A stretch of 549 nucleotides of DNA from NCBI RefSeq assembly GCF_003334305.1, contig NZ_QOWS01000074.1; one strand, given 5' to 3'. Source of the stretch: Escherichia coli. Lineage in GTDB: Bacteria > Pseudomonadota > Gammaproteobacteria > Enterobacterales > Enterobacteriaceae. Below are positions 1-549 of the stretch, in pieces (position 1 is the first letter of the stretch; every line of letters starts with the position of its first letter). Under the pieces are notes generated by a model. That model saw only the letters and a program-made list of their open reading frames with translations. It was not told the DNA's origin and ran no database searches. Both the position numbers and the translations under genes were made by a program.

Positions 1-549
1 ATATCACCGGACGGTAAACGCAGCACCATCGAATATGATAAACGCGGGCGTCCGGTGAGTGTGACGGAAGGCGGTCTGACGCGCAGCATGGGGTATGACG
101 CTGCCGGGCGCATCACTGTGCTGACCAACGAGAACGGCAGCCAGTCCACGTTCCGGTATGACCCGGTCGACAGGCTGACGGAGCAGCGCGGCTTTGACGG
201 CCGGACGCAACGTTACCAGTATGACCTGACCGGAAAACTCACGCAGAGTGAAGATGAGGGGCTTATCACCCTCTGGCATTACGATGCGTCGGACCGTATC
301 ACCCGGCGCACGGTGAACGGTGAACCGGCGGAGCAGTGGCAGTATGACGACCACGGCTGGCTGACAGAAATCAGCCACCTGAGTGAAGGCCACCGTGTGG
401 CGGTCCACTACGGCTATGACGATAAAGGCCGTCTGACGGGCGAACGGCAGACTGACGGAGAAGACGGACCGCATCCCGACGGGTGTGATACGGACGGACG
501 ACGAGCGGACCCACCACTACCACTACGACAGCCAGCACCGCCTGGTGTT
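1..549 (+). CDS. Rhs-family YD-repeat protein, internal fragment of the conserved core; both ends lie outside the window. Frame 1 for 1-450, Rhs reading continues in frame 2 from about 452, so the gene is frame-disrupted and possibly a pseudogene or deletion remnant.
   Basis: Frame 1 translation of 1-450 has no stop: [150 protein letters not shown]. It carries repeated xYxYDxxGR(L/I)T motifs, the YD-repeat signature. Frame 2 translation of 437-547 is [37 protein letters not shown], which I recognise from memory as a segment of the E. coli RhsA-type core. High G+C (about 61%) is typical of Rhs cores. Assignment to a specific paralog (rhsA/B/C/D) is not possible from this fragment. Confidence 0.88.
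31..547 (+). repeat. Array of eight degenerate YD-repeat units (coding repeats, period about 60-63 nt; last unit in frame 2)
   Basis: Y-D dipeptide codons at 34-39 (EYD), 94-99 (GYD), 157-162 (RYD), 220-225 (QYD), 280-285 (HYD), 343-348 (QYD), 415-420 (GYD) in frame 1 and 524-529 (HYD) in frame 2. Spacing of the first six intervals is 60-63 nt. Most units are followed by G/D-R/K-(L/I)-T. The hexamer tatgac recurs five times at nucleotide level. Confidence 0.85.
433..458 (+). other. Frame-shift / out-of-register repeat junction within the Rhs core (frame 1 to frame 2)
   Basis: Direct 7-nt repeat ctgacgg at 433-439 and 452-458, offset by 19 nt (19 mod 3 = 1). The 19-mers 421-439 (gataaaggccgtctgacgg) and 440-458 (gcgaacggcagactgacgg) match at 14 of 19 positions. 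Frame 2 has TGA at 434-436 and then reads [12 protein letters not shown]. Frame 1 reads GRLTGERQ and then loses all YD-repeat character. Confidence 0.6.

Follow-up and report, generated by a model that had tools for sequence, protein, structure and literature searches.

A VgrG-linked rhs pseudogene of Escherichia coli, very probably produced by a 587-nt internal deletion between short direct repeats

The window, i.e., the whole stretch of 549 nt that was analysed, contains Rhs core sequence in two different reading frames, and the question raised by the locus is how these two frames came to stand next to each other. On translation, frame 1 is open across the whole window, with canonical YD-repeat sequence through positions 406-450 and a Pro/Asp/Gly-rich string thereafter. 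The original prediction had described this composition, together with a switch from frame 1 to frame 2, the closure of frame 2 by a TGA at 434-436 and YD-type sequence following in that frame. Translation bore out each of these points, the last one also by tblastn homology, and the switch was located at 444-452, within the interval first proposed. The features of the window are as follows.

1..443, + strand: 5' (left) part of the Rhs core in frame 1, with YD repeats (residues 615-762 in the intact orthologue of 1412 aa)
434..436, + strand: TGA stop in frame 2, which closes the downstream frame on its upstream side and lies within CTG ACG (Leu-Thr) in frame 1
444..452, + strand: probable deletion junction, with the lone retained copy of the 9-nt direct repeat ACGGCAGAC
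451..549, + strand: out-of-frame tail of the truncated frame-1 product, by translation, with its stop ~100 nt past the end of the window
453..549, + strand: 3' (right) part of the Rhs core in frame 2, residues about 961-992 of the intact protein

When the intact Rhs of strain SI-NP020, encoded at the same chromosomal locus, was used as tblastn query, residues 615-765 matched window positions 1-453 in frame +1 (94% identity, E 4e-96) and residues 959-992 matched positions 446-547 in frame +2 (94% identity, E 8e-18), the aligned frame changing from +1 to +2 near 446-453. Judged by this homology, the frame-2 stretch is genuine Rhs coding sequence and a chance ORF is ruled out. The curated NCBIfam model RHS_core (NF041261, 'RHS element core protein'; 1261 positions, whole-protein cut-off 2000 bits) gave the same picture, the frame-1 part of the window covering profile positions 614-763 and the frame-2 part positions 956-990. 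Since these matches lie ~193 residues apart in the profile, frame 1 and frame 2 code for separate, non-contiguous parts of the protein. Extension downstream in locus L001 placed the end of frame 1 at a stop 66 codons beyond the junction. An antisense ORF of 156 codons with an ATG start is also present on the minus strand at window positions 4-474, and a longer one of 322 aa at L001:3351-4319; both are taken to be by-products of coding-sequence composition and repetitiveness, with no sign of being genes.

The segment missing between the two parts was delimited by alignment with six intact or partial relatives, namely LH09-a, SI-NP020, K-12 rhsE, TUM1881, PEC131 and 98212. Relatives match the window as two pieces spanning 1,121-1,135 nt, as against 549 nt in the window, and the missing segment measures 572, 584 or 587 nt depending on the relative, always a length of 3n+2. 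The left parent matches up to window position 452, with GGCGAACGGCAGAC before and GGTGGAGA after the boundary, and the right parent matches from position 444, with GATGAATACGGCAGAC before and TGACGGAGAAG after it, the repeat being preceded there by GATGAAT. In the intact gene of LH09-a, ACGGCAGAC occurs at gene positions 2286 and 2873, a spacing of 587 nt (587 mod 3 = 2), and the intact gene of SI-NP020 gave the same endpoints. At the left site the 9-nt sequence reads E-R-Q-T and at the right site Y-G-R-L; the phases differ, so that two distinct YD repeats agree here by coincidence. In the profile, positions 3-764 are found in the 5' ORF and 956-1261 in the 3' ORF, while 765-955 are absent, so that ~193 codons of the YD-repeat shell are missing. 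As proposed here, an ancestor with an intact 1412-codon gene would have lost 587 nt between the two 9-nt direct repeats (one copy together with the 578-nt segment separating the two), probably by replication slippage or some other short-homology illegitimate recombination. As 587 is of the form 3n+2, the downstream part of the gene now stands in the +1 frame. Short direct repeats are abundant in the intact gene, which contains 76 pairs of at least 9 nt within 1.5 kb, as compared with 25 +/- 4 in shuffled sequences; 60 of the pairs are in phase and 16 are out of phase. It is very probable that the window is part of a pseudogene which arose by this internal deletion in the rhs gene of position 1 (see below), and that the effector was inactivated by it.

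The allele is widespread. A megablast search of 5,426 complete E. coli genomes found the window at 100% identity in many strains, with rhs matches at a median of 3 places per genome. A 91-nt junction probe was fully covered in 406 of the 5,426 genomes (about 7.5%) at 97.8-100% identity, and the remaining genomes match one half of the probe only. The same junction, always in the rhs region of the same locus, was seen in each of the eight carrier loci fetched, and these carriers come from different hosts, countries and sequencing projects. From the identical junction and the constant locus, a single origin of the deletion seems probable. PGAP annotates the gene as a pseudogene in all eight carriers, with the note 'frameshifted' in seven (under the name tssI in strain 41); the eighth, L015, was split into two partial CDS. 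The gene had thus already been labelled a pseudogene in RefSeq; newly added here are the exact lesion, the intact reference alleles and the frequency of the allele. Pseudogenes and relics at position 1 are recorded in a figure of Jackson et al. 2009 (PMC2935791). No paper was found on this particular deletion, and a literature search on ydcD and rhsE gave nothing useful.

The gene is a VgrG-linked rhs of the E. coli type VI secretion island, located between dnaQ/aspV and yafV-ivy-fadE. The dnaQ-to-fadE site is listed as 'position 1' in the rhs catalogue given by Jackson et al. 2009 (PMC2935791). The order at the locus is Hcp-VgrG-Rhs-YdcD-ISAs1x2-yafV-ivy-fadE. Hcp and VgrG adjoin tssB/tssC and are followed by rhs at a distance of 75 nt, the place of a VgrG-associated T6SS cargo gene. 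On the 3' side of rhs stand ydcD, a small antisense ORF, two decayed ISAs1 (H-repeat) transposase genes, yafV, ivy and fadE. The start of ydcD lies 17 nt ahead of the rhs stop codon, so that the two overlap (L001:4774-4790), and at its own 3' end ydcD is overlapped by an antisense ORF of 61 aa, which is yncO-like and annotated as hypothetical. In six of the eight carriers the rhs pseudogene comes immediately after hcp and a vgrG of intact length; strain 41 has a fusion of vgrG with the rhs remnant, and in MINF_2E the remnant stands behind a second rhs. The gene belongs, as a pseudogene allele, to the clade I Rhs proteins of E. coli, which are known as T6SS cargo effectors.

Consequences for the product follow from the single frame break that the gene contains at L001. 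From the normal ATG, the frame-1 ORF runs for 834 codons (L001 1127..3631) and predicts a stump of 767 native residues followed by a 66-residue nonsense tail. The stump holds the DUF6531 N-terminal region and about half of the YD shell. RHS_core positions 765-1261 are lacking from it, which comprise the remaining shell, the Rhs-associated core with the DPxGL autocleavage motif, and the toxin. YD repeats are plainly recognizable, the window's frame-1 product matching TIGR01643 at E 2.6e-16 and the full 5' ORF giving 9 PF05593 matches at E <= 0.001. A core continuous in a single frame was not found, the 5' ORF scoring 1467.6 bits and the 3' ORF 653.3 bits against the cut-off of 2000. As neither ORF reaches 2000 bits, the two are in different frames and positions 765-955 are missing, the gene is classed as a pseudogene of the family and not as a functional member. 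The toxin of Rhs proteins is freed by autocleavage at the DPxGL motif. Published Rhs structures (e.g., PMC11461821 and 10.1101/2024.02.26.582050) show a closed YD-repeat shell around the C-terminal toxin. Given an enclosed toxin and the need for autocleavage, the stump is presumably unable to act as an effector, and the deletion is predicted to have inactivated the effector through loss of function of its product. The 834-aa stump could keep some role, e.g., in binding or occupying VgrG.

The 3' part of the gene is left as a stranded cassette. Its frame-2 ORF is open for 457 codons, through the Rhs-associated core, the PxxxxDPxGL motif (present as YITPDPIGL in the SI-NP020 orthologue) and the toxin tip, and is followed by ydcD. 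The ORF is intact in all eight carriers and ydcD in seven of them. Domains detected in it are RHS_core positions 956-1261, TIGR03696 (E 8e-25), Pfam RHS PF03527 and a tip of the DUF6973 type, and the next gene belongs to the YdcD family (NF050020, E 4e-64). The Rhs-associated core and the tip are encoded in the frame-2 ORF beyond the window, and the position of ydcD marks it as the presumable cognate immunity gene. These 3' domains are untranslatable from the rhs start codon. The first possible start of the frame-2 part is a GTG at window position 485, a sequence scan revealed no sigma-70-like promoter within about 250 nt of the junction, and a terminator scan around the junction found nothing. 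The 3' segment thus appears to be an untranslated, orphan-like cassette that is probably not expressed. Selection retaining the 3' ORF was considered in view of its intactness in eight of eight carriers and was set aside, since from carrier to carrier just 0-6 sites vary over this part of the gene, which leaves too little time for decay and no power for a test; the intactness is therefore silent on selection. It is improbable, although orphan rhs genes of Salmonella offer a toxin-antitoxin-like and recombination-reserve precedent (PMC7043789, PMC3967940), that the cassette serves as a silent reserve to be re-armed by recombination or forms a TA-like pair with YdcD through weak expression from an internal start (the GTG at 485 being the first candidate), with a stump that might occupy VgrG.

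Further lesions were observed in some carriers, which is what is expected of a dead gene. In strain 41 (L002:6930-9810) a ~3-kb deletion, with its right edge near window position 1, joins the first ~940 nt of vgrG to the rhs remnant; the T6SS cluster of this strain is otherwise broken as well, a VasL-domain gene being partial and a hypothetical gene frameshifted (L002:2024-4655). ST130 (L013) carries additional frameshifts in vgrG and in rhs. In MINF_2E (L016:1-8873) the 5' end of the remnant was lost to ISAs1, ydcD is frameshifted, and the remnant sits behind a different, intact rhs with a small downstream ORF of its own; this is a live example of the displacement of an rhs copy that was already dead. 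Genes at the rhsD locus (ybbP side) are also annotated as frameshifted and incomplete, in H15 (L010:5535-9317) and in OkiPb01714 (L012:5535-9318), and Rhs pseudogenisation appears to be common at several loci.

The frame disruption, and the pseudogene or remnant status derived from it, had originally been put forward with the proviso that the base calls might be wrong and that raw reads might reveal an indel of 1 nt or of 3n+1. The break in frame stands, and with it the pseudogene status, now matched by the annotation of all eight fetched loci; the small indel does not, the lesion being one of 587 nt (3n+2). A miscalled base, a 1-nt indel in a homopolymer or a collapsed repeat could in principle imitate a frameshift, and rhs genes are repetitive, present in several copies per genome (a median of 3 places, as above) and prone to misassembly. 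However, the difference is one of 587 nt and not of 1 nt, the 9-nt repeat is too short for a collapse during assembly, and the same junction recurs in 406 complete genomes whose assemblies are independent and stem from many laboratories, hosts and years, at one locus in all eight cases examined. Since the junction is identical across the 406 genomes, an assembly or base-call artefact is excluded, and its probability is regarded as negligible. Programmed +1 (or -2) ribosomal frameshifting, by which one functional, shorter Rhs would be made, is given just as little credence. The two ORFs do overlap, frame 2 opening after position 436 and frame 1 remaining open for 66 further codons, and the 3' ORF is preserved in each of the eight carriers; but the homologues are single-frame and the two-frame state is derived from them by the 587-nt deletion, the product would lack ~193 residues of the YD shell (RHS_core 765-955), and some carriers have more inactivating lesions upstream. 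Inspection of positions 437-460 revealed neither a frame-1 stop nor a slippery run of the kind known from +1 sites such as prfB. No intact homologue was found that carries the window's sequence in one continuous frame; the intact ones have 572-587 additional nt between the two halves.

A fusion by out-of-register recombination between a resident VgrG-linked rhs and a separate orphan fragment of the rhsE type was also weighed, and is considered very improbable, if somewhat less remote than the two preceding explanations. It would account for the 97% identity of the right side and the downstream 4.4 kb to the rhsE'-ydcD-ISAs1 module that K-12 carries elsewhere, and for the right side being closer to rhsD/rhsE-type sequence than were the first position-1 alleles compared. 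The 5' half is, moreover, mosaic: in 150-nt windows the patchwork of L001:1127-3432 is 55-100% identical to other position-1 alleles, and window positions 2-452 are 100% identical to the intact rhs of TUM1881 on the pptA side (rhsE, position 6). Against a fusion, position 1 of SI-NP020 and of LH09-a is occupied by intact full-length genes that already possess this 3' module and are accompanied by ydcD, both ISAs1 relics and the flanks seen in the carriers. Both copies of the 9-nt repeat are present at the required spacing in these intact position-1 genes, so that a simple internal deletion suffices, and the mosaicism of the 5' half is explained by separate gene conversion among rhs cores. The patchwork itself suggests gene conversion between rhs cores at different loci, although exchange between rhs loci is considered infrequent where Jackson et al. 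2009 (PMC2935791) discuss it. The internal deletion of an intact position-1 gene is consequently retained as the preferred explanation.

If so, about 7% of complete E. coli genomes share a VgrG-linked Rhs effector inactivated by one and the same 587-nt deletion. The allele matters for the prediction of T6SS-1 effector repertoires and has little wider significance. The PGAP label 'frameshifted' masks the loss of 193 codons, and correction of a single base cannot repair the gene. YD-repeat coding sequence would also serve as a clean example of a repetitive source of short direct repeats for deletions.

Among known systems, the closest are the intact position-1 Rhs of LH09-a (WP_254521258.1) and SI-NP020 (WP_137564151.1), with which the window allele shares the locus, Hcp, VgrG, ydcD, the two ISAs1 relics, yafV, ivy and fadE. 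LH09-a carries, at this locus and among these neighbours, an intact rhs of 1412 codons; its sequence agrees with window positions 444-549 at 100% identity and with a carrier locus at 99.4% over the downstream 7.4 kb. The region 3' of the junction is 99.4-100% identical to the intact position-1 genes, and the order of DUF6531, YD repeats, Rhs-associated core and toxin tip is the same; unlike them, the window allele is without the 587 nt that hold profile positions 765-955 and continues out of frame. K-12 rhsE (position 6, yncG-pptA) resembles the window allele in its 3' core, tip, ydcD, yncO-like ORF and two ISAs1 (H-repeat) copies. The shared module of 4.4 kb is 97.2% identical between L001:3424-7810 (position 1) and L007:6650-11038 (K-12 rhsE, position 6), and this identity across loci implies that it was duplicated or moved as a unit. 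Both are non-functional rhs remnants with an intact ydcD, but K-12 rhsE is 5'-truncated and yet retains the 587-nt segment, whereas the window allele keeps the 5' end and the start codon and lies at a different locus, beside vgrG. The stranded cassette is also comparable to orphan Rhs modules and to C-terminal displacement (Jackson 2009, PMC2935791; Koskiniemi 2014, PMC3967940), in which a promoter-less 3' core with tip and immunity gene is found downstream of an rhs. A module of the orphan type is in principle recoverable by homologous recombination with another rhs core, and in MINF_2E the remnant does lie behind a different, intact rhs. In classical orphans a new tip was inserted and the old one displaced, whereas here an internal, out-of-frame deletion would have produced the orphan-like state.
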